NCBI GenBank assembly: GCA_047967505.1
Contig: CM106538.1
DNA from: Dipteris shenzhenensis
Lineage: Eukaryota
Length of the DNA stretch: 64,000 nt
Strand: one strand, 5' to 3'
A program made the translations under genes and the position numbers. Below, piece after piece: positions 1,900 through 34,770 of this stretch. Below the pieces are notes generated by a model. It worked only from the letters and a program-made list of their open reading frames with translations, did not search any database and had not been told where the DNA came from. Numbering within the stretch: position 1 is the first letter of the stretch; every line of letters starts with the position of its first letter.

Positions 1900-1992
1900 G
1901 GTACCAAGGTTGTGCTTCCAATGGTCTCATGCGCATGCGTGCGTGTGTGTATATAGATAGTTGTATGTATATATGTACACACACACACACAC

Positions 1993-2100
1993 TTTTTTTT
2001 TTGGTGAAACCAGTAACTATATTATTAACATGAGATCAATGTACATGACATTAGACTCCAAAAGAGAGCCTAATGGAAGAACTCAAAAACAGTCAGAAAA
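1993..2100 (-). mobile_element. Extremely 5'-truncated LINE (last ORF2 codons, 3' UTR and poly(A)) within (CA)n
   Basis: Minus strand reads TCTGACTGTTTTTGA (..DCF*), similar to the ..YCF* end of the adjacent LINE, then AATATAGTTACTGGTTTCACC-A10-(GT)n. Flanked by (CA)n on both sides. Confidence 0.75.
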
Positions 2101-2263
2101 CACACACACACACATGTATGCATGAGATCAATGTATACATACATGTGTGTGTGTGTGTTCCTTCTTTCACACACATTTTTTTTTTGTAAAACCAAGATAC
2201 TTATATTATAAAACATTCATTTACATCCAGGCCGTGCTCAAAAGAGAGCTACAGCCCTATCCA

Positions 2264-5200
2264 TCAGAAACAGTAAAAGAAAAGTTGAATACAAGAAACA
2301 TCCAAATCTTCCTCATGTAAGGCATCATATAAAGACTGCCTTAATGAGGCTCTGAAAAACTCATAAGGATGCTGAAGAGGAGAATTCATATGCTTGGATG
2401 CGCTGCAGCCAGAGGGTCCATAAGGCCCAGTATCTGATCCAGTGGAAGAAGAGAGAATACTGTGACAAAGAAGCTGATAGTGTGCCATACATCCAGAAAA
2501 ACCTGTAGAACCTGTGTGCTGGAAATCTGAGAGATAAAAAATAGGAGATTCTATCTAGAAGGTCTCTGGAATATGAACAAAACCACAATAAATGCGGAAT
2601 ACTCTCCGATGCAAGGTGACATCTTGGACAGAGAGGTGAAGCTATTCGTCGTTTAGCCAATTTCACTCCCACTGGGAGAATACCAACAATACATCTCCAT
2701 AGGAATAGTCTTTGCTTCAATGGCATTTTCAACTTCCATATCATTTGCAATCTTCCTTTCCACCAGGCTAATGATTTGTTCAGATGCCATAAAGAATTAG
2801 CATGATGGGCAATCCAAGGAGGAGGTAATATTAATCTATAAGCCTGTATAGATGTCAATGACTGCAAAGGCTTAGAAGAAATGCTTGAACTCGAAGACTG
2901 AAGGTGCCAATCTTGAAGCCTGTCACTGCCATTCAATGTCGGAATCGGAACCAGAGGAAGTAGGAGATCAGCAATAGCTTTCCAAATAGGTCTATGATGC
3001 ATAGCCAGGTTGTATTGTCTACATGCTGCTGGAAAAAGGAGAATATTTCCTTGCATATCTACAACGTCATCAATGAACCGGATACCCATTTTCATAAGAT
3101 TGTAAGCTCTGATGGGTTGTTGAACAGCAAGGGGAGAGGAAAACACAGCACTCCAATGAATACTCTCCAATCTGAGTGATGATGCTAGAGAAGCAGGATG
3201 AGGAGACCATTTGATGTGAGAGAGTACTTGCTTCCAATCCTGAATCAAGGAATTAGAAAATGGACAACCAGGGATTTTACCTTGAAATTTTCCAAGTACT
3301 ACTTCCGATGGATCTACTATCCAATGTCCATAAGCATGTGTGCGCATCTGACCACACAAAATTGCTAGCATAATAGACCAAGGCTGCTCTTGTTGAAAGA
3401 ATGTTTTGAGCATAGTAATCTTTCTTGCCAACACATGATATTTGATGTTTATTATATTCAAACCACCATGCATTCTGGGTGAGCAAAGCAAGTCCATTTT
3501 GAGCAACCGTAAAGCTTTTTTATGAAGCTTGGTTTTCCAAAAAATCTCCATGGCTTGAGACATAAAAGATGAGAGATCTCGAGATGACCAATGTAATAGA
3601 GGAAGGTAGAACTGGACATAAGCTAGAACAATAGACTGGACAATTCGAAGCCGTACATGCAGAGGCCATGTGGAAATCTTCCAATATTGTAATTTGTCCT
3701 GAATTTGTTGAACACCCACAACATTTGTTGCTTATTACTGATTTTCCAGCCAATAGGATAACCCAAATGTCTTACTATATTTTCCGGTTGAATAATCTCG
3801 CCTGGCCACAGAATAGCATGCCAATCACAAAGCTTGAGAGGCAAGAGTTTTGATTTCTGAAAATTAATTTTAAGACCAGCTGCCAACCCAAAATCTGAAA
3901 GGGTATCCATCAAGAGGCGAATCTCCAATGGACTGTTCTTTAGCATGAAGAATGAATCATCTGCATAGGCCTGCGCTATGAAGGGTCGTGAACCAGAAAT
4001 CTGAAGCCCCTCTAGCTGTCCAGTATCAACCATGTGATCCATATAAAGAAGCAAAGGATGTGAAGCGATGGCATAAAGCAAGGCACTGAGAGGACATCCT
4101 TGTCGAACCGAACGTTCGAGAGTCCAAGACTCAGACAAATGTTTCCCTATAAAGCATTGTGCAGTAGAATTTGAATAAAGCCAATATATGACATTAGATA
4201 GCTTTGGCCCAAAACCAAGTTTTTGCATGATTTGAGAGACATAATCCCACTGTACTGTATCAAACGCCTTCGCCACATCCACCTGCATGACCAACACATC
4301 TTGATTTGAATATTTAGCATATTCCATTGCGATAAGAGTGTTAGTGATATTGTCATGTATGTGCCGTCTTGGAACAAAACCATATTGCCTGGGATGAAGT
4401 CCATCATGAAGGATATCCTTTATCCGATGTACCAACATTTTGGCAATCAGTTTGTATATCACCGGCATCAAAGTAATTGGTCTCCAGTCATCCATAGTCT
4501 CACAAAGAATCTTTTTGGGCACAAGCCTAACCAAACCATGCTTCCAAGCTGAGGGAAGATGTTGGTGCTGCCATGCTGCATTAATAAACTGCAGAATTGG
4601 ACCCTTTATTTCTGGCCAAAAGGCTTCGAAAAATTCAACCGTCAGACCATCCCAGCCAGGGGATTTATGTTTACCCAAATGCTTAAGGGCTTCATCCAAT
4701 TCATCATCTGAAAAAGACATTTCCAGCATTGAGGCTTTTTGCGGGGAGACAATGGGAGAAACAAGCTCAGTAAATCTGTTACGAGCCAATGCGACCTGAG
4801 GTGCAGAAGAGGATGGCTGAGAATAAAGAAACTGAAAATGATCCAGACATTGTTTTTCAAGCTGAGAGAGAGACTGGGTCCAGAGACCATCTGATTTCCT
4901 TACCCTCATGATAGATTGGCTTTGTCTGTGTGCATGTAAGTTCCGGAAAAAAGATTTAGGGGAACAGCCCTTATCTAGCATAGGTTTAACTCTGGCCCTA
5001 ATCTGCCATTTAGACAGCTTGCGTTTGTCATTGGCATCAATTATAGAGGAAGCACAAGACAATAAATGCTGCTCAGAATCAGATAGAGATCTTTGATGAC
5101 TAATCTGTACAAGATACTGCTTGTATGATTTTGCCCACTGGATATGCTGTCTGGTTTCTGCCAAGTACCATCTTCCATATTCCTTGATGACATTTTGAAT

Positions 5201-6079
5201 ACGATGTATGAAAGAGATCCAAGCAAATTCCAGATCCTCCTGGGCATGGGATAGCAATGGCCTGCAAGCCAGTCTGATCATATGCTGAAATTTTTCATGA
5301 GAAAGATAGAATTGATTAACCTGTAAATTTCTGACTGAAGAGAGCTGCAAGTCATCCAGAGGCATACCAAAAGAAAGGGTGAGCTAAAGTGGAGTGTGAT
5401 CAGATAATTGTTGTGAATAATCAGTCCACATCTGACATGTATATTCATCATATTGCTGAGCATGAATGAGATAAAATCTATCAAGCCTGGCCCAATAATC
5501 TGTGAGAGCATTATGGTGATATGTAAATCCCATCACTGAAGGATGAGTTGCTGTCCATAAATCTGCAAATCGAAGTGATGAAGTCATGTGTTCCCATTGC
5601 TGGATTTCAGAGGGCAGCATATGTGATTTATGCGTGGTATTGTCCTTCCAGTGAGGAGAATTGTTAAAATCGCCACAAAGTAGAGCATTAGAGGACCAGG
5701 GATATTGCTTTATGGAGTTCCACATTTGAGCTCTGGAAGCTGAATTTTGAGAGGCATACAAAGATCCTATTTCAAAAATCTCTCCATTGATCATGCATTG
5801 GATAATCATCCATCGTCCACCTAGATCATTATATGCTATCAAGGGTTGTAGATCATGTCTGGCTAAAATGCACAGCCTAGAGAATTGTTCCAATCCTGAA
5901 TAGAATATATCATATCCTGAAAAAAACCCATGCTGTCCAGCAAAAAAATGCTGATTATGCTCTTGGAGACATACAACATCCGGATGAGTTGTATTTATAT
6001 AATGCCAGAGAAGCCTCCATTTATTCTGGTTGCAGAGGCCCTGTATATTATAGGAAAAATATTTAAGAGAAGCACGCAT
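2264..6079 (-). pseudogene. LINE-A ORF2 (APE endonuclease, reverse transcriptase, zf-RVT), disrupted
   Basis: Motifs SYNIQG, CLQE, CGDFN, RLDRF, SDH, KSPGWDG, WRPITL, RQGCPLS, YADD and CPRC..ESIPHLLWFC. In-frame TAG at 5384-5386 and frameshifts near 3720 and 2400. Ends FFYCF* at 2264. Confidence 0.92.
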
Positions 6080-6127
6080 GAAAATATATACAAGAGAATG
6101 ATCGGTCCTCCAAAAGAGCGGGAGGCC

Positions 6128-7332
6128 TCAAGCCTTTGCCATTGCCACAGGGTCTTGCTGACCCTCAGCTTCCAATTCCCTGATAATATCATCTTCTTCA
6201 CAAAGGGGAAGACCCTTCTTGACTGCATTGACCAAGCCTTTGAGATGGGGCTGCTTGAAGAGGTAGAAGATTGTCCTGGAGAAGGAACAGAGGCATCCCA
6301 ATTACGAGATTGGAGAGGTCTTTGTTTGAGAGGGACCATCTTCTTTGCAGTCTGCCATCCCTCATGAGAAGATGGAATGTTTTCTCCTAACTTGCTTTTG
6401 CCTTTATCCTTATTTTGAGCTGAATTGGCCTGGCTCCCTGTATGAACTAAAGGCTTTGCTCCTTTAGCTTCAATCTTTTCCACATATGTCTTCTGACCTC
6501 CTTTATTAGATGGCAGAGGAATAGCAGCTGGAGGAGGTGGATGAAGGATAGAAGGACACTCCGAAGCAAGATGCCCAAATTTGTGACAAGAAAAACAAGC
6601 TCCAGCAAAAATGCCCCATTTTAAGGTGAAATATTTCTTGCCCAAATTAACACCCTCAATCTCAACTGCAATAGAAGAAGGGGTCGGTCTATCAGTATCC
6701 CATAATATGCAAAAACGATTTTTATTACCTGTTGGACGAGGGGGACAGATCACTTGTCCCAATGTCATAGCTAAACCTGGAAGCTCTGTTCTCATATAAT
6801 CTGGAAAATCAACCACTTCAACCCATACAGGGCAATGATGCTTGATGAGGTTCTGATAGTCCTTATTGGGGGACCAGGGCATGATATGCACCATCTGGCG
6901 ACCAAAAAATAAAGGGGACATTTCCAGCATCTTTTGTTTTGTCAAAGCATCCAAAAGATGAACTTCATAAAATCCTCGGGAGGCAAAATAGACTCCTTCT
7001 ACAAAGCATCCACCTAGGAGAGAATTCACCCATTGTCCCACATCATTAGCAGAGGGAATTTTGCCTGGGAAAAAGATGATAACTGCAGTTTGAGAAAGCT
7101 TCTTCAAAGGTTGCACAAGAGATGGCAGCTTCATTTTGTAAGTGAGTTCCGGAGCAGGTTGAATCCATTCCCTTCTGCTTTGTTGAAAATCATCATTCAG
7201 CATATCAAACACATAGGAAGCATCTTCAGAAGAAGGAGCTATGGGGGAAGAGGCTTCCCTTAATTGTCTTTTGGGTTCAGGAGAGAGGGCTCTCTTGACA
7301 TAGTACTTGTTTACTTCTACCATGGAGGCCAA
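6128..7332 (-). pseudogene. LINE-A ORF1 (plant L1 ORF1-like, CCHC zinc knuckle), frameshifted near the C-terminus
   Basis: PVWVEVVDFP motif and CFSCHKFGHLASEC knuckle. The alternative frame KKGLPLCEED..VAMAKA* (stop 6128-6130) matches the ORF1 end of LINE-B (KKGIPIL..MAMT*). Confidence 0.85.
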
Positions 7333-7393
7333 GGGATTGAACAGATATCAAACAGGGAGAATCGGACAGGGCACAAAGAAAGGCTGGCAGGAA

Positions 7394-7715
7394 GTACGGA
7401 TGCTGGGATGAAGCACTGTACGGACACAACAAAGAAACTGACAGAAACTGTACGGACAGATTAAGAGATTGCAAGAAGGACCGACAGGCTGTACGGGATC
7501 ACTGACAGGCTGTACGGGACAACAGACAGTCTGTACGGAAGAGTTAACGACTGTACGGATTGATTAAACGGGAAAAAGACGGACGGACTGTATGGGCTTT
7601 AGGAAGGAAAACTGCAGGTAAGAACTGACGTGCAGGGTTGAAAGGATCGGCGATGATACGGTAATCTGACGCAGAATCCGTACGGGAACCGTACGACGGC
7701 CGTACGATGGTACGG
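7394..7715 (-). promoter_or_regulatory. Cluster of 11 GTACG cores (mostly CCGTAC on the element sense strand) in the LINE-A 5' UTR
   Basis: GTACG at 7394, 7418, 7450, 7491, 7512, 7533, 7553, 7680, 7691, 7702 and 7710. The regulatory role is inferred. Confidence 0.5.
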
Positions 7716-7770
7716 ACAAAAAGATGGGCGCCAAACAACGACGGGCGACGCTGACCAGCAATCACGATCG

Positions 7771-7863
7771 ACGCTCACCGTCACAGACCGGCAGCCAACT
7801 CTCGTCGAGGCTCACACCACGCTCACCGTCACACACCGGCAGCCAACTCTCGTCGAGGCTCAC
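7771..7863. repeat. 48-bp tandem duplication in the LINE-A 5' UTR
   Basis: ACGCTCACCGTCACA(G/C)ACCGGCAGCCAACTCTCGTCGAGGCTCAC starts at 7771 and 7819. Confidence 0.9.
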
Positions 7864-8599
7864 CCTGTCACCACACACACACGTGATCGACGCACACACA
7901 CACACCACACAGCTCCGTCGATCACACCCTCCACACACACACACCTACTCCTTCTTTCACACACACACACACATGTATGTATACATACATACATAGTCAT
8001 CTATCAACTCAAGGATGGCTTAAGAATCTATAAAGTGTACATGATGGTGACTCTATGGATGGACTTGACAATGATACCTAAGCATCTGAAGATACGTCTT
8101 TAGGTTAGCTCGAGCTGATCATGAAACATGCAAAGCCATGCCTAAACGTGCAAGACTTGTGGATGATTGGACTTGAATTCGAGGACGCCGTCAATTTTCC
8201 TTGCTACAAGAGTAAGCCCACAATGGGTCATCGGGAGGGGGTCTTCAGATAGATGCTCGATAATTTCAAGCCAATCGTCACTCAATGCATTTCAGTTTTG
8301 TTTGATTAAATTTCAATGTTTTCATAGGATAATTACCCCGGATGGACATTTCTCACCTTGAATAGGTCATATGTAGCAAGTTTTATACGTGAGGAGATTC
8401 AAGCATTATTCTAGGTCATATCTCTTTATCCATGACTTCAAAGATCTCTTGGCAATGATCATGATTATAAGCAACTCTTCTCCAACAATGTTCATGATGT
8501 AGATTTCTACTTTGAGCTGACGGCAATGATATCTAGTTATATACGTGTGTGTTAGCAATAGTTTGATGCACATGGTCAAGTCATAGCACAGAGTGATAT

Positions 8600-8930
8600 G
8601 TCAAGCTGTGACCTTATGTATTGAGCTAGGTGTGTCACTGTGTATCTTAGTGATAGGGTCCATAGGCATGAGCTCGATCTTAATACAATACTACTCTACT
8701 TTTTTTGGGTCATGTGTATTGAATTTGGTGTGTCACATTGTCAAGCTATGAGCTTATGTATTGAGCTAGGTATATCACCTTTGTATCTTAGTAACAGGGC
8801 ACGTAGGCATGATGCAATACTAGTCTACTTTTTTTGGGCTATATATATTGAATTTGGTGTGTCGCTTTGTTTCTACGCAATAGGGCCCGTAGTCATAAAC
8901 TTGACCTTGATACAATACTAGTCTCTAGTT
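8600..8930. repeat. Diverged ~140-bp tandem repeat (2 copies plus a partial copy)
   Basis: GTCAAGCT..TTATGTATTGAGCTAGGT...ATTGAATTTGGTGTGTC repeated at ~8600 and ~8740. Confidence 0.7.
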
Positions 8931-11047
8931 TTTTGTTAGTCTTTGTATTGCTCAAATTGGTCAATTGTCTTTCGGAGTATTTGATTGAGTTCTTTGTATG
9001 TTGACCTCAAATTTTCAACACATTGCATTTACTTTATTGTTTGGCAAGTATGGTGTATGACAATTGAAAGCCACACGTGTTAGTATGCTCATCCATGCAT
9101 TATGGATGATGAATTCAAGTAAAATAAATTTATGGGAATCATGCCGTGCATATTGTTATGGAGCAGAAACATTTGACAATTTTAACAGTTAATTCAGATG
9201 ATGATCATAGTGATCATCGAATACGTTTTCTACATATCTTCAATAGTATTTTCATATGCTCTAGCACATCGCACAATTTTTGACTTGTCGATATGATTTT
9301 ATAGTTCTTTGGTAGTGCTTTGTTCTCCGTGCTTGGAGAAACTACATGGTCTAAATGCTCAGCCTTGTGTAGGTGACCACATAAAATTTTGAGTTTGAGG
9401 GCTTGCGCTACTTACGTAGCTCATGGTAATTTGTGGACGTGGCTCTGTGTGAGCAATAATTAGCATATGATAGTTTGCTGTGGACATCTCCTATGTGGTG
9501 GATCTGCCTATACTCGTGCGGAAATTTTTTGTTTGCACCACTCGAGTTTGCAGGTTTGTGACCACCTCGTTCATCAAACACTCAAGTAGGGTCTTAAGGG
9601 CACGTATCATCTGCTTGATGTTTTCTCTATGCTTTTTACCTACTCTGTTCAAGACGGGGATTGTTGGTTATTAGCATATTGTAAACCTCTTATGGAGGCT
9701 GTGCTTTTGTTTGGTTGGGTGGCCATGCATAAGGCGCTTACCGTGGATTCAGCATATTTCACCTTGGATTGGTCATATCCAGCACGCTTGGGATACGTCA
9801 GGGATTCATGCTTTATCCCAGGGCTCACACTTGCCCATGTATTCCTCTGTGACTGCAGCAATCTTCTGGCAATGATTGTGATAATGGGCGGCATGTGGAT
9901 TTCATCTTTCAGCTGATGGCATCGATATCTAGCTATATAAGTGTGGTGTGTCAAAGATAGTCAATGGCAAACACTCCATGCTGCCCGTCTATCACGATTC
10001 AGACCAGCCTGCCATCTCGCCACTTTTGCCTATGAACAGCGGCCTTTTTGCTGCCTTTCCAATCACGCTCAGACAGGCCAAGCCCTGCCCTCAGATTGTA
10101 CGCAGCACATAATGCAATTTCAATGCAGGAGATAGGGCCAGGTTCCACGCAATCTGCCCTCTTCTGCAAATCGCCTCTGCCATGCCTCAATCAGCCTTGA
10201 AAGTCTCGCCATGAGCCTCTTTTTGGTTCACCATTCAACGTGGACTTGCACAGACAATCGATGGACTTCCGGACAAGAGATTTTCAGGCCTTGCTATGCA
10301 ACTAATTGGCAAAACTGATCTATGCCAGGTGGATTCTTTCCATTCTCTTTTTCTTTCATATTGATATTTGCTGCTCATTATCAAATTACAGCCAATGAAA
10401 GCCCTTCCTTTAAAACATGGAAACCCCTGGTAATGCCCCAGTACCTTCAAGGTCACCACAGGCATCACCTATCACTCAATATTGTGTTCAGATTGCACAA
10501 CCAGTCCACTTTGGAGCCTTTACATCATGGGTCTCTTGTGTCACGTGCCCTTCCAGTGATTTAGACCACATCCTATATCTTCTGCGCGAGGCACCTCAAC
10601 TACACTACTTCCTTAGCGCAGTCCAAGTTGTGTTTCACGAGACACGAAGATACCCAGAACCCGATATTCCACACAAGTTCGCTGTCCATCTTTGGAGAGA
10701 CTTTTACCCCTTAGCTTCAGCATCTCCAAGGTACTCTCCACCTCCTTCAGCTCCCAGATATCCTCCTGAACAGGTTTCACCTTCTCCAAGACAGTATTTA
10801 CACTCTGAAGGCACTCCTTCTCCTCAATATCCTCCTCTTCCGACAGCAACTCCTTGCCCTTTCTCAAATCCGTGGACTCTGCAACCAACTCCTATGCTCT
10901 CACAAGTAGTAACACCCATTTCGGCATCACCAGTGTTACCTCCTTCAAGACCTCCTTTGCCAGATTTCCACGGGTGGTTCCATCCTACCTCGCCTACCAC
11001 ATCCAACATGAGCAATCTCAGGGAGCAGCCCAAATCTTCCTCCACGA

Positions 11048-12800
11048 ATGGTACAAACTAGAGCGCAATCTCGTGCTCTTCTCACAAGGACCTCAGACAT
11101 GTCGAACCACTCGTGTCCAACCTCCCCGGAGATAAGCGACTCTAGTTCAAAAAAGATCCCTGAAGTGAATATACATGGTGAAGCATTACTTCAACTTCAG
11201 ATTTCTCAACTTCAAGACAGTATTTCTGATTTGGTCCAGAAAGTTCAACAACTCCAAGATTCTCGTAGTACCACACATACAGAGGATGACGTGATGCCAC
11301 CTAACGACTATGTGGACCCGATTCCACCAGAGGTATAAAACATTGAACTTTGTGCCCTCTGCTACTTACTTTAAGCTTCCAAAACTAAAAGACTTGACAT
11401 AAAACTACCGGAAGCCTACACTGGTCAATGGAATCGCCAAACAGTTGACCAGTGGCTCGCCAAAATGTGCATGTACTTTGAAACTATCAAACTCACTAAA
11501 GGCAAGAAGATTGCCTTGGCATCCTCCCTCCTCAAGGATACAGCTTTTCTTTGGTGGCAACGACACTTAAAGGACGGCAAAAGTGTGTTAACCTGGGAAC
11601 GTTTTGAACATGTGCTCTGTAAGCAGTTCATACCTGCCAATGTGGACTTCCAAGCACGTTCAAGACTTTGACAGTTGGAGCAAACGGGCTCCCTATCTTC
11701 CTACATCTCCCAGTTCACCACATTGGTGTTGGAGATCGATGGTTTGACTGATGATGATTGCCTCCATGGTTTTATCTCAGGCCTAAATCCCTTGTTACGC
11801 ATTGATGTCCTCAAAGCAAACATCACCACCACAACTGACGCTATTGCTTACGCAGAGCGCATTACAGATTTCCAAAACACACGAAAGCAGGGTTCTAACA
11901 AATCGCAGAACTCTACATCAGCCAAGGGTGCTCGCCCTCAGGATAACTCAAAGTTCAGAAAAAATTCAGATGATCAAGGTCCTCGACAGTCTCAAGATCC
12001 CAACAAGTCTCAGAAATCGTAAGCTGGATCCCAACAGAAGCACTCCTCTAAGGATCGTGCCTCTTCCTCTTCACAAAGCAATGATTGTCATCATCAACAC
12101 AAAGGTGCCGCCTCTGACAAGAAGAACAGCTCTAGCACAAAAGGACTTTGTACCATCTGCACTGGTGACCACAGATGGTTTGATTGTCCAAAGCGACCCA
12201 AGCAAAATTCAAATATGGAACCTAGCACTTCCCAGACAGAAGATGCTGCTCCTGCACAAGACAAGAAAGGTAAAGCTGTTCAAATGGCAAATACCATCCA
12301 CATGAGCCTTGCCAGCAACCTTGAACCTTCCTTGGTCACTCAAGTACTTTGCATCCAAGGACACCGATCACTATCCTCATAGACAATGGCTGCTCTCATA
12401 ATTTCCTAGCTAGTTCTATGGTTGAAAGACTTCGGTTGACCACCAGTCCTAGCTCCATGGACTATCAGCTCGAACTCGCTAATGGAACTACCTTCTTCTG
12501 CAACACCAATGTCAAAAACCTGTCCTTTCGCATCCAACATTATACGAACAAGTTGAATTTTGACATCATGCCTCTTTCCTAATATGATGTCATCCTTGGA
12601 CAACAGTGACTCTACGACTATGACCCATCAATCAGTTTTCGCAACCATACTATCCAGTTTGTCCACCAGGGAAAACTTATCGAGCTAACTAGTTCTAGGG
12701 ACTCTCCTTCAACTCCAGCTGCCTCCGTCTTACAAGTAAAGAAGTGGATTCGTAAACGTCAAGTAAAGACTGCACTTCTCTTGGGCAGTTGAGGAGACAC
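11048..12800 (+). pseudogene. Gypsy gag and aspartic protease, with stops and frameshifts
   Basis: Gag-like AFLWWQ..TWERF..QTGSLSSYISQF, knuckle CTICTGDHRWFDC and protease ILIDNGCSHNF. Confidence 0.8.
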
Positions 12801-13080
12801 TGTGACGCCAAAATTTGATATTTTTTATTTGGCATTGGTATTGTTTTCTTCTATGTTTGATAAGAGTTTGAGTATCAAGTGATAGCCTAGCGGCTCTCAC
12901 TTATTTACAAGTAAAGAAGTGGGTTCGTAAACGTCAAGTAAAGACTGCACTTCTGTTGGGCAGTTTAGGAGACACTGTGACGCCAAAAGTTGATATTTTT
13001 TATTTGGCATTGGTATTGTTTTCTTCTATGTTTGATAAGAGTTTGACTATCAAGTGATAGCCTAGCGGCTCTCACTTATT
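12731..13080. repeat. 175-bp tandem duplication spanning the gypsy/insert junction
   Basis: Copies at 12731-12905 and 12906-13080 with about 5 substitutions. Confidence 0.92.
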
Positions 13081-14690: not shown

Positions 14691-14822
14691 TTTCCTCAGA
14701 ACCTACCCATCCGACCCAATCAGCCCCTTCAAGCTCCTTGATATATACAGTTTATGTCATGTTGAGCCGCAAGATCTTCTTTCAACAGCGTATCGCTCTT
14801 CTCTTTGGCGCAGACCGGCTTG

Positions 14823-15240
14823 CATCCATTGCCTCGCATTGATGACCTTTTCGATCAAGTTCTGCACGCAACACAATTTTCAAAGATTGATCTTCGTTTA
14901 GATTATCATCAAATCCGCATATGAGAAGGTGATGAGTACAAGACAACTTTTCGAACAAAGTATGGACACTATGAATGTTTGGTCATGCCTTTTGGGTTAA
15001 ACAATGCCCCGGCCACATTCATGACACTAATGAACGATACCTTCAGGCCTTTTCTCGATAAGTTCGTCATTGTTTACCTCGATGACATCCTCGTTTTCAG
15101 CAGATCCTTAAATGAGCACAAACATCTTCACCAAGTTTTTGAAGTTCTCCGCACAAATTCTCTCTACATCAACGTTGAGAAGAGTGAGTTCTTCAAAACC
15201 CAACTCGAATATTTGGGACATGTTACTTCAGCCCAAGGCA
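14823..15240 (+). pseudogene. Gypsy reverse transcriptase fragment
   Basis: [67 protein letters not shown]. Confidence 0.9.
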
Positions 15241-16004
15241 TGACGATTACTTTTGTGGTCCATGTCTGGTGCTACTTGCAGAGAACTAGTTTCTTAAGTG
15301 CATCTCTTTTGAATGGGAACTTTTATGCTATTCCCATTGCTTTTGAATATTATGGTGTTCCAAGTTAATATTCTCATCTTATAGACTGCTATCCCAGCCA
15401 TAATCTTTCTTTGGTCCTTGGACCCATCCAAAGTCTCTCTCTAACGACAACTGGATTGGTTGGGGCTGCATAGTACGGGATGCACAGTCATACTTGGGAT
15501 TGACTAAGGTCAATAGGTACAAACAAGGAGACAAAGATTGATTTGTTTAGCCATGGATTTGGGCAAAGATGTCTTGTATAGTAATAGGTTGGATAACCTG
15601 CTATTCTGAAGGGATACTATATAGTGGATTGTTGGGTGCAGGAAGCAATGGAACGGGAGTGGAGTGCGGGAAGCAAACAAGCTGGAGCAAAACGTAGTAC
15701 TGCTCAAATGGACAAGAGGAAAATACAAAGCGCTAGAGCAAAACCTAGTACTATTGAAATGGATAAGAGGAAAATACAAAGGGTGGCCTATATGGCCCTC
15801 AAGTCAACCATATGGTTGACCAAAGAAGTCAACTCATAGAGTTGACCTGACCTACAAGGCTCATACCAGGGCTAAGTGCTAACAAACCCCCCTCCATGGT
15901 ATGGCTGAAGTATCCTGGAAATATCTCTGGAATACCTAGAAACTATATCATGGTTATTCGTCCCAAAGGGATATAGCAACCTATGATATGTATAGAGTGA
16001 TCCC

Positions 16005-19100: not shown

Positions 19101-19154
19101 GACTTGACGACTGACGATCTGAGGGCTAACTTGACGACTGACGATCTGAGGGCT
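19101..19154 (+). repeat. 27-bp tandem duplication
   Basis: (G/A)ACTTGACGACTGACGATCTGAGGGCT x2. Confidence 0.85.
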
Positions 19155-23177: not shown

Positions 23178-25709
23178 GGCAAAAATAAATCCCTAAAGGA
23201 AAAACATGCGCTCAAGAATAGCCTCAAGGCTTTCATTGCAAAATGAGCTGGCTGTCCAAAAATGACAGCAAATGTCAAGCAGTGACAAACCAAAAATTGA
23301 CTGCTCAAACAATGAGCTAAATGCACGTGCTGTCCCCAAAAATATGTCGTGCAAAACAATATTTGTCCAGTCAAAGGACCCTTCTGCCAAAGATAGCTGT
23401 CTTGCAAAAATATCAGCCCAAAACAAGGGGCAAATGTCTGCAAATGTATCCAATGATCAATTGAGCTGTAAATGTCCCAGATGGAGGCTGCGTGCCTCAA
23501 ATCTGACAAGACAACAAGCCCAAATCAAGGGGCAAATGCATAATATACCCAAATTGAGGTGAATAAAGCAAATGCCACTGCAATGGACAGCAAATTTGGC
23601 AAAAGCCCCAAAATCTAAGAGGTCAAATATTCCAAAAAGAGGGCAAATTGGAAAAAGGCCCAAATTGTGCTACAAGTTGCAAATGTGATTCAATGTGCTG
23701 CAATTCCAAGATAATGTCAATGTTCCTACTTGTCAATGTCTACCAAATGCCCAAAATTGGTTGTACCAAGCCAATGTCACTGCAAATTTCAACAAAATTG
23801 ACAAAACCCCCAATTTCTGGAAGGGCAAAGCTGTCAAATTTGGGGCAAATGACCAAAAGCCCCAAATTTTGCTGAAATAAGGCAAATGTGACAAAATAAC
23901 CTGCAAATCTAAAAATATCCCACAATCTGTCAGCAATAGATCCGAAATCCCCAGCGTCGGAGTGGAAAGGAAGTCAAAATAGGGCAAATACTAGAAAAGC
24001 CCCAAAATGTGACCAAAAGGAGCAAATGTCACTGTAAAATCTGCAAATGTGACACAAAAGTCCCAATCTCTAGAGAAAAATCACCTCAATGTCACTGTAA
24101 TGTGTGCAAACGTGACATAAAAGACGGTGAAAAGCTTCAAATCCAACTATACCAGGCAGATCAGAGTCACGAGGGAGAGAATCCCAGCCAAATGGTGCTA
24201 GAGAAGATTGGAGCACCTAGAGGAAGGCCCGAATGACTCAAAACAGTCCAAAACTGAGCAAAAAACCTCTAAAAACTATTCAAAAATGCTCGAAATCAAC
24301 TTCTGACAAGTCGTACGGATTCCTAGCAGCATTGCGCACCTATACGTACGGGCGTACGGATGAATTTTTTTCGACCGAAATGGTGTGGGACAGGGTCATT
24401 TGTTTGCGGGCAGCTCAAAAATTTCAAAAAACATTGAAATTGGACCTCAAAAAATAAAAAACAGTCACTGGACTGTTTTTCTACTCAAAAAACAAGTTTT
24501 AGGCGATGAAATGAGGCACCGGACTGAGCTGAAGCAAAATGGCAGGTAGGAGCAATGAGAGAGCACGAGGGAAGGCAGGTAGGAGCAAGAGAACCTACTA
24601 TGATACCACTGTTGGGTGCAGGAAGCAATGGAACGGGAGTGGAGTGTAGGAAGCAAACAACAAGCTGAAGCAAAACGTAGTACTACTCAAATGGATAAGA
24701 GGAAAATACAAAGGATGGCCTATATGGCCCCCAAGTCAGCCCTATGGTTGACCAGAGAAGTCAACTCATAGAGTTGACTTGACCTACAAGGCTAATACCA
24801 GGACTAAGCGCTAACATGGATGCTTGATATTCTAAAGTGAGGCTTCACTTGGGTAGTGGCAAGCTAGTAAAGGAACTCAGTAAGTCCATCTTGTGCTTGG
24901 ATTGAGCACGAGATGGGAACACAAGACAACTTTTAAACTTTATGTTCATGTGAACATAGAGAAATTTTGGGTTCTCAAAGAGAGAATTCATGATTATCAG
25001 AAAAGCAACATCAGAAGTAATCCTTCTGGTAGCTTTTGGGTAAACTCTGGTATCCTTGTGGACAGGGTTTTGGGATGTCGGATGACATCAATCTACCTAG
25101 TGGACACTTGGCTAAGTTTCCACCCGCACCTCTCCCTCAAGGCCAAGGCTATGAAAGACACGTCTGGGAACCCTTTACAAGTGAGAGGGAGAGAAGAGAA
25201 AATTTGGAACATGATTTTCTTGAGATCTTAAATTGGATCTCAATAGACCTTAACTTGAAACTTGGATCTTGCCATCATAGATGACCCAAATACTAACATC
25301 CGGATGGGTGGTCTGCAGTAGTATGGGATGCTACAGATGCTATTGTGGGTGCATCAGAATTCCTTAGTGACAGGGAATTCAAAACCTCTACCATTGGGCC
25401 GTCGGTTGGTAGATGACGGTTCATTCTTTGGTGATAAGGATCACCTGAGGAGTTCAGGATTGTAACTCCTAGTTGCCAGATACCATGGTCTATCAAGCAT
25501 TCTGCCATTGGTGAGTGGGTGTCGCCAAACCTACCCAATGGGTTACCCTAAGGAAACTGGGTAATGGATGACCCTAGACTTGCTGACGAGCGAGTCGGTC
25601 ACTGTGGACTTTCGGATGGAAGGTTGTGGGCTGTAAATTGGTTACGGCTTAAGTTCGTTTTCCTATCCTGACATATATTAGTATAAGTCTTATTTTAAGG
25701 GAAGGAGGA

Positions 25710-26289
25710 CGTTACATCCCCACTAGGATGTAACCAGCTATGGGTTCGCAAACCCTAAGGTGTGACTGACATGGTCTTGATCTAGCTAAGGGTTAGGACT
25801 AACCTAAGGGACCTAACTAGCAGAAGAGGTCTACAAGAGCTGGCCTAGCCTCAAGTATGGCTAAACTTGGGTGGAGTGTTTCCCCAACTAGGTCAGAGAC
25901 AAATATAGCCTAGGTAGCCCTAAAGTAGGACTTGCTGGCTATAGATGGCTAAAGCCTAGGGTAGGGGCTCAGTTGATGTGGTCTTGAGGATGCGTTCCTC
26001 CGTGACCAAGACTTGCTGCCTAGAGGGCAGCAACTAGGGTGAAGGGCTTGTGGTATGCGACGCAAGTCTGAGTCTAAGGCTAGCTGGTTCTCGTATCCAG
26101 ATGGTTTAGACCTCTAGCCCAGGGGTGGCTCGGATGAGCCTACAGTTGCGAGGTGAGTTGCTAGCTTCAACCCTTATGGGTTGGTTGCGGGTACGTCCCA
26201 TGGTGTGTATTGTGAGATTTGGTTTAGAGGGCGGTGTAGGATACCTCACCAGGGTCTAGGGTTGACCAAAACCGGCAACGGTTGTTACA
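25710..26289 (+). mobile_element. Possible degenerate LTR
   Basis: PPT-like TTTTAAGGGAAGGAGGA followed by GTTACA, and an end at GGTTGTTACA. No partner LTR or TSD seen. Confidence 0.35.
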
Positions 26290-26764
26290 GTTAGGCTCTA
26301 GCAAGCTAGCCTCAATTATCTTGACAGATGTAGTGTACAAGCAAACTCACAAAACCTAGCACATCATTATAGAGTCATACAATTTTATTAAAACGCCTTT
26401 TACTCAACATATAAACGTGGCTCTATTTGGGCCATGTCATGAACTTGTGATACATCCAATTGCCTTTCCTCCTGATGAAGAGTGTTTCAACCATATGCTT
26501 CAATAGTGAAGAATTTCCTTTTGGCTTCAGCACGACTGTTCAAGTAGGCAAAGATAAATATCCTTTGGCTCTTCTTGCCAGGTTTCTATCTTGAAGCAAT
26601 TTGATAGCTGACCGGCAACAATACTCTACTTCTCAGCTTCAATACTAGAAAGTTGTTCTTCTCCATAAATTGCGAACGCAACACACTTGACTTAGATAAG
26701 GATGCAACAATAGGATACCTAGATACAACCTCTGTACAAACATCATGCAATTGGCCATTCTTAC

Positions 26765-26961
26765 CTCTCTCTCTCTCTCTCTCTTCCTTCCTTCCTTCCA
26801 TGACAAAACTTTGAATACCATATGCATAGCCATAATCAAGTGCATAACATTTATTGAAAGCTCTCTCTCTCTCTCTCTCTCTCTTCCTTCCTTCCTCCCA
26901 TGACAAAGGTTTGAATACCATATGCATAACCATAATCAAGTGCATAACATTTATTGAAAGC

Positions 26962-26964
<3 letters not shown>
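26765..26964. repeat. ~100-bp tandem duplication, each copy starting with (CT)n
   Basis: (CT)n-TCCTTCC..CCATGACAAA..TTTGAATACCATATGCATA..ATTTATTGAAAG x2. Confidence 0.88.
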
Positions 26965-27029
<65 letters not shown>

Positions 27030-27031
<2 letters not shown>

Positions 27032-30000
27032 CCCATGTCAACCTCGATCTAGGGAGCCCTGCTATTGCTTGCTTTGAGCCCAGCTGATCTTCTTCAGCAT
27101 CTTCAGCCCTCTTACATAATCCGTACTATCCGTACAAACTGTACGGACAGTTTTCGTCCGTCCCTACAGCCCTGAACCCTGACGCAGATCTCGAAAATTG
27201 AAATTAGCCCGCCACCCTGCTCTTCTCGCCTTCTCGTCGTTTCCTGCTCGTCTTTTGTTGTTCATATCGTTGCATCGCCTCCAACATTTCCTTAGCTTTG
27301 TCTTTGTTTAACCCTCTTCTCCTTTCATAACCTAGTTGCATTGAATCTCTTCCTTCTTAATACTCAGACTTTTGCTGTGTTTTTTTGGTACTGGTTTACG
27401 TGGGCGTGTGGATATCCCTTACGCTGTCCATATCCTCTTCTATGCTTTAGTTCTCCTCCTTCACCTCTTCTCTGATGGATTCTGACCCTCAACTCAAGCA
27501 TTATTTGCACAGGGATCGCTCTCTTGATCCCAAATGAAGACTTACAGAAGCTCCTGCAAAGGATAATCTGGATGCACGCTATGTCTTTGATATGCTTCAT
27601 GAGGAATTTTTTCAAAGTAGACACACATGGAGCGTTCCGGAAGTCAAGTACAAATTGAAGCTTCCCTCTTTGGTAAATCCTCTGAAAAAGATATCACAGA
27701 CTGCTGTAATTTTGTTTTTTCCAGGAAGAATCCCTGCTGCTAATGATGTAGCGTAGTGGATAAAGGCCTTGTTGGGTGGATGTTTTGTTGAGGGAGTATA
27801 GTTTGCCTCAAGGGGCTTTTATGAAGTACATCTTGCTGATGTCACTTACAAGTAGAAGTTATTGGAATTCTCCCCTTTGTTTTATGGCAGACGATTGCCC
27901 AATATGGGTGGAATTGGTTGATTTTCCAAACTATATGCGTGAGGAGTTACCTGGACTCGCTGCATCTTTGGGGCAAGTGATATGTCCTCGTAGACCCACT
28001 GGTAATCGCAATAGACTTTGCATTTTATGGAACACTGACAAGCCTACACCTCCTTCCATTGCAGTTGAGGTGGAGGAGGTTCGTATGGGAGAGAGAGAAA
28101 TATTTTGAGTTAAAGTGGGGGGTCTTTCGAAGACTTGTAGAGATTCTCTGAACCAAAGGTGCCATCAAACTGTCTTTTTATGTGACCATACTCGCCATTA
28201 TAATTGACAAACTTCATAGACTAGAGGTAGTCAATAGAGCGAGCGGGCGGAGCTTGCTTTGCATGTCACAAGTTTGGTCACTTGGCATCAGAGTGTCCTA
28301 CTGTTCTTCATAGACCTCCTCCAACAGCTATGCCTCAAAATAATGCTCAGCCTTTGCCTTGCAATGGAGGGCAGCTTCCCAACATTTCAACCAATACTAC
28401 TCTGGATAAGGCATCTAAAGCAGCAAATGAGCATTTGATAAAGGTAAACACTCCTACAAAGGCAAAGGACAAAGGTAAAGAGAATCTAAAGGATTATGAT
28501 AATTCAGAGAATGAAGGCTGGCAGCAACTTAAAAAGGTTATTTCTTTAAGGTAGAGACCCTTGCAATCCAGACACTGGGATGCCTCTTCTCCCACTCCTG
28601 GTCAAGGCTTCCAGTTCTCAAGTCTCCCATGCCACTAGATTATGGACAGATGTCCTCAAAAAAGGTATTCCAATCTTGATCTAGCTGATGCTGCTCCTCC
28701 TTATGAGCATGAGTCTCAACAAGAGGCAGAGGACATGGCAATGACTTGATGCTTTCTCACATTTCTTGTATACAGCTTTGGAATGTCTTTCTTACAATGT
28801 TCAAGGCCTCTGCAATGTAAATAAATGGAGGCTACTTTGGCATTATGTACATACTATGATCCAGATGTGGTTTGTTTGCAAGAACATAATCAGCATGATA
28901 TGGCTGGACAACAAGGACACTTTGCAGGATATTACATTTTTTATGCAAGCAATTTGAGTTTTTCAGGAGTATGCATCTTAGTCAAGCATGACTTGCATCC
29001 TTTGCTGGCTTTTAATGATCAGCATGGTAGATGGATGGTGTTACAATGCATGGTTGAAGAGGATATCTATGAGATTGCTTTTGTGTATGCCTCTCAAACT
29101 TTTGCTTTGTGTGGATAGATGTGGGATGCCATCAATCATTATCCTTGGAAGTCTAATGCCTTCGTATGTGGAGATTTCAATAACTCCCCTCATCCACAGG
29201 ATAATACTACTCACAAGTCTCATATGATACCTTCTGAATTTCAGAAATGGGAGGAGATGCAAAGTACTCTTAATGCAGAAAATTTGTGGAAAATCTATCA
29301 GCCTCAAACACTGGGATTCACATATCATCATAATGCACTTTCCCATTACTGGGCGAGATTGGACAGATGGTACCTATTGAATGCGCAGCAGTTTGATGCT
29401 TTCACATGTAATTTGTGGGTTGACTACTCTCTTTAACTGTGGAATCATGCGCCCTTGTGGTTGGACTTATGTTTTGCTCAAACAATAAATTATTTACAGC
29501 CTTCAAGTGCTACAATGCTTCATGTGAATAATGCCTACCTTTCACACAAGCAATTTCAGGAAGCCATCTTACTTGCCATCCGGCCTCTTCCGTTGCATGC
29601 TTAAGAGGATTTGGATTTTGCTTGGGAGAGTTTCGTATGCCGCATTCAAATGATCATTAAGGATTATGGCAGGTGGGACTCAAAATGATCAAAGAAAGCT
29701 TCGTAAATGGCAAGTTAGAGCCCGGATTAAGCCCTTGTTGGACAAAGACTGTTCTTCAAAATCCTTTTTTAAGAGTTTGCATGCAGGAAGACAAAGACAA
29801 TCAATTCAAAGGATTAAAAAACAGGATGGTTGCTGGACACAAACTCAATCCCAACTGGAGGCTGAATGTGTACAGCATTTCAAAAACATTTTCTCGCAGC
29901 CTTTGCCTTCCTCTTATCAGTTCCAAGCTCAGCGCAGATTTTTGGATCGTTTCAGCCCAATTATTGATTCAAAGGTTGCTGTAGATCTTGAAAAGCATTT

Positions 30001-31777
30001 CTCAGACACTGAACTTGATGATGCTATGGCAAAGTTGGCTAAAGGTAATGCTCTGTTGTATGAAATTGCTACCCATCCGCTGCTGTTATATATGGATTAT
30101 TTGACTAACTTGGGACAGTTGCATGGTCTTCAGTTACCTGGAGCACAATCTTTTTTTGCACAGACGTATGCTGATAATTCTTTTTTCATGCCTCAAAATA
30201 GTCCTGCTGAAATCAGGCTTCTCATGAGCACTCTTTTTGACTTTGGATTGGCAGCTGGTCTGAATATCAATTTTAATAAATCTAAGCTTTTGCCATTGAA
30301 AGCTTGTGATTGGCACTCGCTTATTTGGCCTGGTCAAATTTTTCCTCCTGATCGGATTGTCAGACATCTAGGGTATCCTGTGGGCCGGAATATTACCATC
30401 AAACAGCAAATGGCATGGGTGTCTGAGAAGCTTTATCAGAAGTTGGATTATTGGAAATTATCCACATGGCCACTACATGTTCGCCTCAGAATTGTTCAAT
30501 CCATGATTATGGCTCATGTTCAGTTTTATTTGCCCCTTTTACACTAGACTACTAAACATCTCAATACTTTTATGTATCATGCAATGCAGCTGTTTTGGAA
30601 GACAAAAACTCGCAGGAAAGGTTTGAGGCTGTTAAAAATGCACTTTATATGTTCTCCAAAGATGCATGGGGGTCTTAACATTCTCGACATCGGGTATCAT
30701 ATATAAGCGAGAAAGATTACCATGCTTCCTACTTTTTCCCAGCAAAATCAGCCATGGGCTATCATGTTGGCAGCCATTGTATGAACATGAGGACAAAGGC
30801 ATATGGGGATTGGATTACTGATCATTGGGAAGTGGTCATTGGCAAATTTCATGGCATTATCCCTGGCTGTCCTTACTCCTCTTCTCTATTACACGATTGG
30901 AAGCGAGTGCTTCCAAAAGTTAAATGGTCTCCTGTCAAGTCAGCTCAGGCCAATTCTCTTCGCCATGAAAGTATACACTGGAGCTCAGTTTTTCATCTTC
31001 CTCTTGCCTTACAGGAACCGGTTAAGGCATACAATCTCATGAAACTTGGGATTCATTACATTGATGATGTGGTGGATGCTCAAGGGAATATTTTATCATT
31101 TCCAGGTGCTTGCCGTCAATTTCCCCTTGGTATGCATCATAGACCAATATGAAGGAAAATAAGCATCTTGTTGCAACACCTACTCCCAATTCCACCTTAT
31201 GATGGCTCCCTCCGACTTCAGAATTGGCAGCTCATGCCCTGTAATCATGGATTACGCCCCATTTCTTTGCAAGCCATTTCTTCTATAAAAACTTATAGAT
31301 TGATTTTGCCTCCTCCATGGATTGTGTAGCATGGGAATACCCTCTGGCATCTACACAAATCTCTTTAATGGTGGAAGTCAAATCTCAAAGTAGTATGGAG
31401 AAGTAAGCTACCTTTAAAGCAAAGATTGTTTCTTTGGAGATGTTTGGTGGGTGTTTTTTCAGTGGGAGTCACTTTGGGCAAATGTGGGATTTCTCTCTTT
31501 TTTCATTGGGTCAGATTTTGGGCGTTTTGGGCTATTTGGAAGCCGAGGAATCAGGTCTTCTAAGGCAATCCATTGCTTCAACCGTATGAGTTTTTTAGAG
31601 CATCATTACGGCAATCTCTGTATGATGCTTGTCATGAGAATGACTTGATGTATCTACTTTAGAGGTATTTTCCCACTGCTTTTGATTTTTCAAAATAGTC
31701 TGTTTTCTAGGCTATTCTTGTTGTAAAAAGTTTTTCTTATTATAAATTTAGTGGTTTCACCCCTCAAAAAAAAAAAA
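27030..31777 (+). mobile_element. LINE-B: near full-span L1-type LINE related to LINE-A, degenerate with internal deletions
   Basis: ORF1 remnants (CPIWVELVDFP, CHKFGHLASEC), EN (SYNVQG, CLQE, CGDFN, RLDRW), partial RT and an A12 tail at 31766-31777. Flanked on both sides by (GT)n(GA)n. Confidence 0.9.
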
Positions 31778-31802
31778 GTGTGTGTGTGTGTGTGTGAGAG
31801 AG

Positions 31803-33639
31803 ATGACTGGTCTTAAAATCCTTGGGGCTGCATCTTTTTTGGCACAAGCATATGCTGATGATTCCTTCTTTATGCCACAAAATTCTCCCCGGGAAGTTCA
31901 CATGCTTATGACCACCCTATCATTGTATGGATTAGCAGCGGGATTGCATGTCAATTTTGACAAATCTAAATTGCTTCCCTTGAAACAATGTGACTGGCAT
32001 TCTATTCTCTAGCTAGGTCAGGTGGTGCATTCCAAAGATGTAGTCAGGCATTTGGGATATCCTATAGGATGGCATATTACCAGGAAGCAGCAGTTAAAAT
32101 GGATCTTCCAAAGACTTCAACATAAACTGGAATATTGGAAAATTTCTACTTGGCCACTTCATGTCAGGCTCAGAATGGTACAGTCCATTGTAATGTCCTA
32201 TGTTCAATTCTTTTTGCCTTTGTTACATTGGTCCCCCAGAGATATTTCAGCCTTTATGTCTCAAGCTATGGAGCTGTTATGGAGGACAAAAACTGCTGTG
32301 AAAGCATTGAGACTGATGAAGATGGAAATGGTGTGCTCTCCTAGGATGCATGGTGGACTTAATGTTCTCAATATAAGATATCATGTACTTGCAAGGAAGG
32401 CGACTATGCTCCATACTTTTTCCCGTCAACAACAGCCATGGACTTGTATGATAGCATCCATGTGTGTCAACATGAGGACATCGGCATATGGCCATTGGAC
32501 TACTGATCATTGGGAGGTTGTCATTGGGAGATTTGTAGGGAAGATACCTGGCTGTCCTTTCTCTACTGCTCTGATACTTGACTGGAAACAAGTACTTTCT
32601 AAGGTCAAATGGGCTCCCAATAACTGCTCGGGGACAAACTCGATGAGGAAAGAAAGTATTCATTGGAGTGCCATCTTTGACATTCCACTTGCTTTACAGG
32701 AACCTGTTCGGGCATATAATCTCATGAAATTGGGAATTAGATACATAAATGATGTGGTAGATGATCAGGGCTATGTCTTATCTTTTCCTCAGGCCACTGC
32801 TTCCTATGCATTGGGAATGCATCATAGGTCGATATGGAAGAAAATTGCTGATTTGTTACATCCTCTTCTCCCTGTTTCTCCTGTGGCTGGCACAGACAGG
32901 CTTATGGATTGGCAATTGCAACCCTCTGCTACATGCTCTCATCCTGTTCCTCTGCCTGTCTTGACCTCCATCAAAGCCTACAGGCTTCTTTAGCCTGCTC
33001 CATGGATTCAGCAATATGCTAATACTCTGTGGCATATCAGGAAGCCCCTTTCATGGTGGCGGAAGAATCTCTAGATATTATGGAAGTGTAAAATGCCTTT
33101 GAAACAAAGACTTTTTCTTTGGAGATGCATGACCGGCACTTTGTCAGTGGGAATCACACTTGCCAAACGTCACATTGCACCATCCACATGTTTACAATGT
33201 CGAGCTCCTTCAGAGACTGTCCCTCATTTGCTTTGGCACTGCCCGTGTTCTAGGAACTCCTTGGAAGAATTTCAGATCATCTTCGGCTCCGTTTCCCGAG
33301 CCACAGATTTGGGAAACATTTTTGGTTATTTGGAAGATTTATGAGGTCTTGGTCTCACTATTCACTATTTCTCTCATGGGTCAGATTTTGGGCTCTTTGG
33401 ACAATCTGGAATGAGCATAATTTGGCATACTTGGGTCACCAGATTCACAAGTCATATGAATCTTTCCGAGCCTCATTGCGGCAATCCTTATATGATGCCT
33501 GCCATGAAGGTGATATCCATGCTTCTTGCATAGAGCTTTTCTTTTTATGTTTCTGATCTTTCGGATACTATCCATTTTGGAGACTTCCCATCTTGTAAAT
33601 TTATGAGAATATAAATACACTGGATTTTACTAAAAAAAA
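31803..33639 (+). mobile_element. LINE-C: 5'-truncated L1-type LINE (RT YADD to 3' end), head-to-tail with LINE-B
   Basis: QAYADDSFF, WKISTWPLHVRL, zf-RVT CLQC..HLLWHC and FFLCF*. A8 tail at 33632-33639 followed by (GT)5(GA)n. Confidence 0.92.
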
Positions 33640-34770
33640 GTGTGTGTGTGAGAGAGAGAGAGACAGAGCTATTAATTGAGGACATTTCAAGTTACCTGCT
33701 TTAAAGATTCATTTATTTTGAAAAAATTTAACTGTATGCACATTTTAACGTGGCCACTGGACCTGCTGAATCTTCCACTGAGGCTGAAGGAGCAAGAGAA
33801 GCAGAAAAGAGGCAACCCTTGTTAGAGGACACTCCAGGTTCTTACATCCACTCCAAGGCCACATTGTAGCTCCTCACAATCTCAAGGAAGAAAAACTTCT
33901 AAGCTCCAATACCAATGTAGTAGAGATGTAGCCTACGATCTTCTCTCACAAGTCTGTCTAACAAACTACTGCTCATAGCATCCATTCTGAGCCAACCAAG
34001 ACTGTCCGGAAAAGCTGTGTTTCCTGATTGACAGGAGCTAATTGAGTACAACAATACTATATCATTTTCATTTCATCCAACAACAGGGGCTGGGGCTGAT
34101 CCTCAATGAAGAGGCTGAAGGCGGCAATGGGATGGGTTGAAGCCCGAATCCAGGGCTTCTGCAGAGGCTACTAGAGGCTGGATCCAGTCACTTGCTCCTG
34201 TCCATGTGACTGCCTGTGTGCCAGTCCCACATGGGCTGCGCTGCTGCTGCCATCTGCCCCCGTGGCAGATCTGTGACTGCTGCTGTTGGTGGTGGCCCTT
34301 GTGTCTGCCTATGTTCACAGCCCTATAGATGCCTGTGACATAATACCACAAATAGGATCCACAACTAGCTCTCAACAGTCACGCTATTTGGAAGCTCTAG
34401 CCCCATCTTTAATAACCCCATCCCTTGCCCCAGTTATATCAGAGGCAAGAGACATTATTAAAAAGATGCACATCTAAGACTACATAACACCAGAGTTCCA
34501 GGACCCATTGACATTTTGACTGCAACTTCTTAGCTACTCTGCTCAGAACATTTTAAGAATTCAGTACTAAAGCAAGGCTTCTTTTTATGGGATTCTTCAT
34601 TTAGTATATTCCATGTTTAGTATGTTTTTTACTGTGTTCTTCTGTTTTTCTTAGTTCTTGGCATAAGCAGGCACATGGTTGAATGTACGAGTGTTTTTTT
34701 TTAAATAATTAAGGTGAAAACAGGATTGCTCGCACAGAAATTAAAAGCCAGAAAACGTTCGATGCATTAC

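Follow-up and report, generated by a model that had tools for sequence, protein, structure and literature searches.

Microsatellites are used as insertion targets by several long interspersed nuclear elements (LINEs) with an apurinic/apyrimidinic-type (APE) endonuclease. The available part of Grandi and An 2013 lists Waldo (target ACAY), MinoAg1 (AC), Kibi (TC), Koshi (TTC), and Dong (TAA), all of them from animals, and the paper uses the word "plant" 0 times (PMC3812793). For fish, the (TG)n-specific element Togen is described in the accessible portion of Kojima and Jurka 2015 (PMC4640811), and in the green lineage the Chlamys Penelope-like elements (PLEs) show an insertion bias toward (CA)n according to the sections at hand of Craig et al. 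2021 (PMC8557442). Plant L1 elements are monophyletic and stand apart from Tx1, a group that itself falls within the L1 clade, as presented in the available parts of Ohshima 2012 and 2013 (PMC3472496, PMC3747384). Here we describe four related LINE copies in a 64-kb stretch of contig CM106538.1 from Dipteris shenzhenensis (assembly GCA_047967505.1; hereafter the window), designated stub, LINE-A, LINE-B, and LINE-C, each of which runs from its poly(A) tail straight into a GT microsatellite. An earlier sequence-only reading of the window had named no equivalent characterized clade in land plants. Within an open-access scope without subscription journals, Repbase Reports, and supplementary files, we found microsatellite-targeting APE LINEs in animals only and none in a plant or fern.

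The same reading had placed GT or TG repeats directly after all four poly(A) tails, and re-reading of the junctions confirmed this. On the sense strand of the elements, the tails with their ends at 1993 (stub), 2176 (LINE-A), 31777 (LINE-B), and 33639 (LINE-C) are each followed at once by such a repeat, with a tract length from 4 to 9.5 units. The orientation is constant in 4/4 copies, the poly(A) leading to GT and never to AC. When both strands of the window were scanned for A-runs of at least 8 bases, with at least 4 (GT/TG) units as the criterion for a GT flank, 10 runs were found; a GT repeat came next in all four LINE tails versus 0 of the 6 other runs (Fisher exact p = 1/210). Because GTGTGT or TGTGTG starts at only 248 of 128000 strand positions (0.0019), with the LINE-associated ones included, the base-exact adjacency is far beyond chance (~4e-6, even with the four tails reduced to two independent loci). 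The association between poly(A) and GT is real and non-random.

A further claim, that three of the copies lie at GT-purine junctions, stands as far as the junctions themselves are concerned; as a count of independent events it shrinks to two sites, since the stub and LINE-A are ~60 bp apart in one compound microsatellite and a single (GT)n(GA)n tract is common to LINE-B and LINE-C. Both microsatellite sites received two insertions from different subfamilies, and the result is a same-orientation head-to-tail pair at each (stub with LINE-A; LINE-B with LINE-C). Head-to-tail pairs in one target are a hallmark of target-specific LINEs of the R1/R2/Tx1 type.

For these four copies, insertion into a (GT)n tract that was already there, with the poly(A) always on the GT-strand side, had been proposed and is now well supported by the target site duplication (TSD) of LINE-A and by the GT repeats found 5' of the truncated copies. 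LINE-A is a full-length element on the minus strand (body at 2186–7948, 5773 bp including the tail). Its A10 tail (2176–2185) is preceded by GGTTTTAC and followed by TGTGTGTGAAAGAAGGA, the 3' copy of an exact 17-bp TSD (2159–2175). On its upstream side the 5' copy (7949–7965) extends to 7973 as (TG)8, without an A-run, and the 5' junction reads ...ACATACA(TG)8AAAGAAGGA and then the element; the TSD thus starts inside the (TG)8. The 17-mer occurs exactly twice, at these two positions and both times on the minus strand, and two matches were obtained in 0/100 shuffles. Since what precedes the 5' TSD copy is more TG, and neither A nor T, the bottom-strand nick fell inside (CA)n and left a primer end ...CACA-3'.

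The stub, also on the minus strand, is the 97-bp, 5'-truncated end of the 3' untranslated region (UTR) of a related LINE (2003–2099, recognized from the 3' UTR alignment), ending TGGTTTCACC and sharing 51–62% identity with the 3' ends of the three larger copies. Its A10 tail (1993–2002) is followed directly by (GT)8 (1977–1992, sense strand), and (TG)7.5 lies directly 5' of the body (2100–2114). Like the stub, LINE-C is 5'-truncated and GT-flanked on both sides; because both copies are truncated, the GT repeats 5' of them cannot be element sequence, and the (TG)7.5 beside the stub is target-derived. A GT repeat belonging to the element's own tail was rejected as the sole explanation on the grounds of the LINE-A TSD and of these 5' flanks. 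In the two resolvable cases the TSD has the form of (TG)4-5 plus 7–9 purines, a possible hint about the second nick at n = 2.

The LINE-A target (2114–2175 joined to 7949–7990) is, by eye, the center of a near-perfect inverted repeat, TGTATACATACA(TG)8 - AAAGAAGGAA - (CA)7.5 TGTATGTATACA, with arms of ~28 nt, which could form a cruciform or hairpin. Several smaller peculiarities were recorded at this locus. The 15-mer catgagatcaatgta (plus strand) is present at 2029–2043 in the stub and again at 2121–2135 in the spacer between the stub and the LINE-A TSD, which suggests that a short stretch was duplicated locally or that another, very small stub is present. At 1867–1901, some 100 bp away from the stub, (GT)8.5 passes directly into G19, an odd simple-sequence junction. 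The first ~80 nt of the LINE-A 5' leader (7872–7944, minus strand) contain three (GT)n blocks; two 48-bp tandem units and CCGTAC-rich repeats come next. In appearance, the GT blocks are pieces of target picked up 5' in earlier cycles.

The elements of the second locus are on the plus strand. Directly 5' of LINE-B lies (TG)16(GA)16.5 (26966–27029), probably an expanded 5' TSD copy or the target itself. The decayed LINE-B body follows (27031–31765, 5' boundary approximate); its tblastn matches to LINE-A come in several segments that skip residues 239–404 of the reverse transcriptase (RT) open reading frame (ORF) of LINE-A, and its frames contain stop codons. The A12 tail (31766–31777) passes into (GT)9.5(GA)3.5 (31778–31803), which borders LINE-B on its 3' side and LINE-C on its 5' side, and the last GA units of which are a possible microhomology overlap with the first bases of LINE-C. 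The LINE-C body (31804–33631) is truncated within the RT just upstream of the YADD motif, at a boundary uncertain by ~7 bp, and ends in an A8 tail (33632–33639) directly followed by (GT)5.5(GA)9.5 (33640–33668), which includes the 3' TSD copy. The two LINE-C flanks fit a TSD of up to ~17 bp. Both flanks of LINE-B finish ...GAGC before diverging, and we tentatively suggest that its TSD once spanned a compound repeat that later slipped. Just upstream of the (TG)16(GA)16.5 that borders LINE-B is a tandem-duplicated 100-bp unit headed by (CT)10-12 CTTCC repeats (26765–26964). The exact 5' end of LINE-B is uncertain, since the sequence that follows the microsatellite (CTCCCATGTCAA) is similar to the beginning of this upstream unit (CTCCCATGACAA).

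The domain content of LINE-A points to an L1-type element. On the minus strand, ORF1 (5995–7347) matches DUF4283 (E = 3.7e-7) and carries a CCHC knuckle, CFSCHKFGHLASEC, at residue 251. It is followed by ORF2 in the order N-terminal APE endonuclease (5384–6127; Exo_endo_phos, E = 2.1e-7), RT (3623–5383; RVT_1, E = 8.2e-29), and C-terminal zf-RVT (2361–3731; E = 2.5e-11), all by Pfam. A DUF4283 and CCHC ORF1 together with a C-terminal zf-RVT are hallmarks of plant L1 elements. The best matches in the PDB were the human L1 endonuclease and ORF2p, and a Protein Atlas search with the RT returned generic RT clusters only. ORF2 has two defects, an in-frame TAG at 5384–5386 and a frameshift near 3700. 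The endonuclease ORF itself (5387–6127) is open, aligns to the human L1 endonuclease (E = 4.7e-7), and has an SDH motif just before its stop; its N, E, Y, D-x-N, and D fall at aligned positions that we take to be the catalytic ones. Other L1-type traits are the A8–A12 tails, the 5' truncation of two copies (stub, LINE-C), and the exact 17-bp TSD. Judged from their sequences, the elements probably belong to an L1-type lineage of land plants, probably of ferns.

The copies were said to be clearly diverged, and they are: LINE-A, LINE-B, and LINE-C share 64–67% pairwise DNA identity over 1640–1823 aligned bases and 42–65% amino-acid identity (mostly 55–65%) across tblastn segments. With such low mutual DNA identity, the three represent separate subfamilies, and all four copies, the stub with its 51–62% included, are separate insertion events. 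The group has a conserved 3' end, ...ATAATATA..TGGTTTYAC-A(n); matches to the pattern TGGTTTYACNAAAAAA in the window were limited to the stub, LINE-A, LINE-C, and an internal site with 2 mismatches.

Among named proteins, the closest relatives come from the fern Adiantum nelumboides (hypothetical proteins, 53–64% identity). An alignment of LINE-A, LINE-B, and LINE-C had no relatives among metagenome, genome, or viral contigs. Another alignment gave 10 related loci in metagenome contigs and no match in genome or viral contigs; two of the loci, L001 and L002, reach the 3' end. These two form one sister family with an intact-looking ORF2 and 46–52% amino-acid identity to LINE-A, and the C-terminal region of this family shares just 25% identity with a carrot L1 protein. 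In a quick maximum-likelihood tree of 12 C-terminal sequences, local in scope and made of fern and metagenome relatives only, the three copies and two Adiantum proteins formed a clade (SH-aLRT 97) with the L001 group outside. For LINE-B and LINE-C the tree rows were translated tblastn-matched stretches with stops written as X, and L002, L006–L009, and P0001 were excluded as duplicate or too short. No TSDs were visible for L001 and L002, whose short-read contigs may be chimeric and join flanks of different copies, and the 5' sides of these contigs were excluded from the flank comparison. In L002 (90–104) the element is bordered 5' by (GA)n (AAGGAGAGAGAGAGAGG, then the element).

Taken together, it is fairly likely that an L1-type APE-endonuclease LINE group, probably from ferns, prefers (GT)n.(CA)n microsatellites and integrates there by target-primed reverse transcription (TPRT). 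The endonuclease-dependent form of TPRT is favored because the copies show the poly(A) tails and TSDs that it would be expected to leave. The first nick would be made on the CA strand, within the repeat, and the free ...CACA-3' end would serve as the primer for copying the poly(A) tail into cDNA, with no T:A complementarity, yielding a copy of the form element-A(8-12)-(GT)n. A second nick ~17 bp downstream, placed within the purine run in the two resolvable cases, would create a TSD of (GT)k plus purines, and repeated insertion into one microsatellite would build the head-to-tail pairs. We infer that the site is set by the nicking preference of the endonuclease itself, that priming needs no complementarity, and that the preference for (GT)n would hold genome-wide. 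A clade-wide specificity encoded by the endonuclease is plausible. The use of microsatellites as safe-harbor sites, put forward in the earlier reading, would be a further conjecture. A bolder version, in which first-strand nicking truly specific for (CA)n.(GT)n arose independently in a fern L1 lineage, together with priming free of T:A pairing, and was kept across at least four subfamilies diverged to ~65% DNA identity, is possible, and we place it somewhat below an even chance.

Several observations weigh against such a preference. The four insertions represent no more than two independent genomic sites, two at each, and the window has (GT)n tracts of 5 or more units that carry no LINE, at least four in number (at 1565, 1867, 48113, and 53849). 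The nick phase is not uniform, the first repeat base after the poly(A) being G in three copies and T in one (LINE-A), and repeat slippage blurs the TSD limits of the stub, LINE-B, and LINE-C. Microsatellite-rich patches could also attract or retain LINEs for other reasons. Finally, the tails of the sister family continue GAAAACGTC and GTTTTGATGG, with GT in 0/2; any specificity is thus confined to the subclade and does not extend to the wider fern group.

Three other explanations of the junctions were weighed. The site could be chosen by the RNA: source copies residing in (GT)n would produce read-through transcripts with an A(n)(GU)n end, which anneals to a nicked or frayed (CA)n strand. Insertion would still be directed to microsatellites, by another determinant, and the tail-adjacent GT would be partly templated by element RNA. 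GT follows the poly(A) in 4/4 copies in tracts of variable length (4 to 9.5 units), as this pairing would allow, and the three (GT)n blocks and G-rich purines of the LINE-A leader give the impression that earlier cycles transcribed flanking target along with the element; in R1/SART-type elements, read-through 3' ends aid precise integration. However, the TSD fully accounts for the GT tract of LINE-A, the GT tracts have no second poly(A) beyond them, and alignment folding detected no conserved RNA structure in the 3' UTR (-0.26 kcal/mol, 5 weak pairs), and we regard RNA pairing as unlikely. DNA structure is slightly less likely still. Here (GT)n.(CA)n and nearby inverted repeats would adopt non-B conformations prone to breakage or breathing, and LINEs whose specificity is ordinary would use the lesions or be recruited to them. 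This would suit the position of the LINE-A target at the center of an inverted repeat and the compound microsatellites at both loci. Random breaks do not predict the constant strand seen in all four copies, though, and the 2.4-kb and 1.5-kb (GA)n arrays of the window, which are also non-B-prone, hold no LINE of this group. The copies have TSDs and poly(A) tails, which endonuclease-independent insertions usually do not.

Most improbable of the three is passive co-location or chance, in which LINEs and GT repeats pile up in a repeat-rich, gene-poor stretch and the junctions are coincidental or have grown from the tails after insertion. The window is indeed dominated by Ty3/Gypsy and Copia elements and simple repeats, and the available part of one source proposes passive accumulation near CA repeats for Drosophila Waldo-A/B (PMC3812793). 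Such piling up does not account for base-exact adjacency in 4/4 copies against a background of 0.0019 per position, for the single orientation, or for GT inside the exact TSD of LINE-A; to turn A(n) into (GT)n, A>G and A>T changes would have to recur many times, and the 5'-side GT repeats would still be unexplained.

Apart from the LINEs, the window contains elements of the Ty3/Gypsy and Copia types, one fragment each of a tnp2-type transposase and an ABC transporter, and (GA)n arrays of great length. A tblastn search of the window with the LINE-A proteins matched only LINE-B, LINE-C, and LINE-A itself. No second LINE family that could serve as an internal control was found in the window, and an RVT_1 match at 14925–15368 is part of a Ty3/Gypsy element. 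All (GT)n tracts of at least 7.5 units detected by Tandem Repeats Finder in the 64 kb are at or within ~110 bp of these LINEs or inside the LINE-A leader; the exception, found by a regular expression, is (TG)8 at 48113–48128, inside a (GA)n array. This tract and (GT)5.5 at 53849–53859 form (GT)n(GA)n compound motifs within very long (GA)n arrays and, having no LINE, represent unoccupied potential targets.

The degenerate (GA)n arrays of ~2.4 kb (45798–48183) and ~1.5 kb (53761–55243) adjoin repeated segments resembling long terminal repeats (48045–48536, 53031–53761, and 55241–55980), which belong to a Copia element at 49056–53449. The array at 45798 starts straight after an assembly gap of 100 N (45696–45795). 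A 496-amino-acid open frame on the minus strand (35876–37366), with ABC_membrane and the beginning of ABC_tran, probably represents an exon from an ABC-transporter gene of the host. The hexamer AACCCT is repeated 3.3 times at 41844–41863 and again at 42422–42441, 578 bp apart, with (CT)9.5 ~70 bp after each; this looks like a duplicated segment bearing a short telomere-like repeat.

These LINEs probably represent a new, plant form of a phenomenon known from animals. Target-specific LINEs are natural models of site choice by the APE endonuclease and by TPRT, and templates for programmable insertion tools. If the bolder version is true, land plants would gain their first microsatellite-specific LINE clade. 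A (GT)n-specific plant L1 would have an independent origin within a clade otherwise thought to use A/T-rich sites. The non-GT sister family would provide a natural contrast pair for mapping the determinants of target choice in APE endonucleases. Such a lineage would also partly explain how GT microsatellites come to be linked with dispersed repeats in the large genomes of ferns, a link relevant to marker design and to the assembly of these genomes.

Compared by description only, the insect R1-clade elements MinoAg1 and Waldo are likewise APE LINEs specific for a CA/GT-type microsatellite, (AC)n and (ACAY)n, respectively, in the part of the source available (PMC3812793). They differ in being from animals and from another clade, whereas the fern copies have a plant-L1 architecture with a DUF4283 ORF1, a zf-RVT C-terminus, and poly(A). 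Kibi and Koshi of fish, from the Tx1 group in the L1 clade, share with the fern copies an L1-clade APE endonuclease and microsatellite targets, (TC)n and (TTC)n, as given in the same partial text (PMC3812793); again by description only, the target motif and the host kingdom differ. Since plant L1 elements form their own monophyletic group in the portions of the phylogenetic work at hand (PMC3472496, PMC3747384), microsatellite targeting in a plant would be an independent gain. Togen, a NeSL-related fish element, has the same (TG)n target as far as the accessible text describes it (PMC4640811), but it carries a restriction-like endonuclease instead of an APE endonuclease and comes from another clade and kingdom. 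The Chlamys elements of green algae are green-lineage retroelements with a (CA)n insertion bias, but, being PLEs with a GIY-YIG endonuclease, they are outside the LINEs, and they are known from algae, spike mosses, and slime molds according to the available sections (PMC8557442). With ordinary plant L1 LINEs the fern copies share the domain architecture, the poly(A) tail, and a 17-bp TSD. Those elements use A/T-rich targets; in contrast, the LINE-A target is not A/T-rich, and its primer end reads ...CACA-3'.

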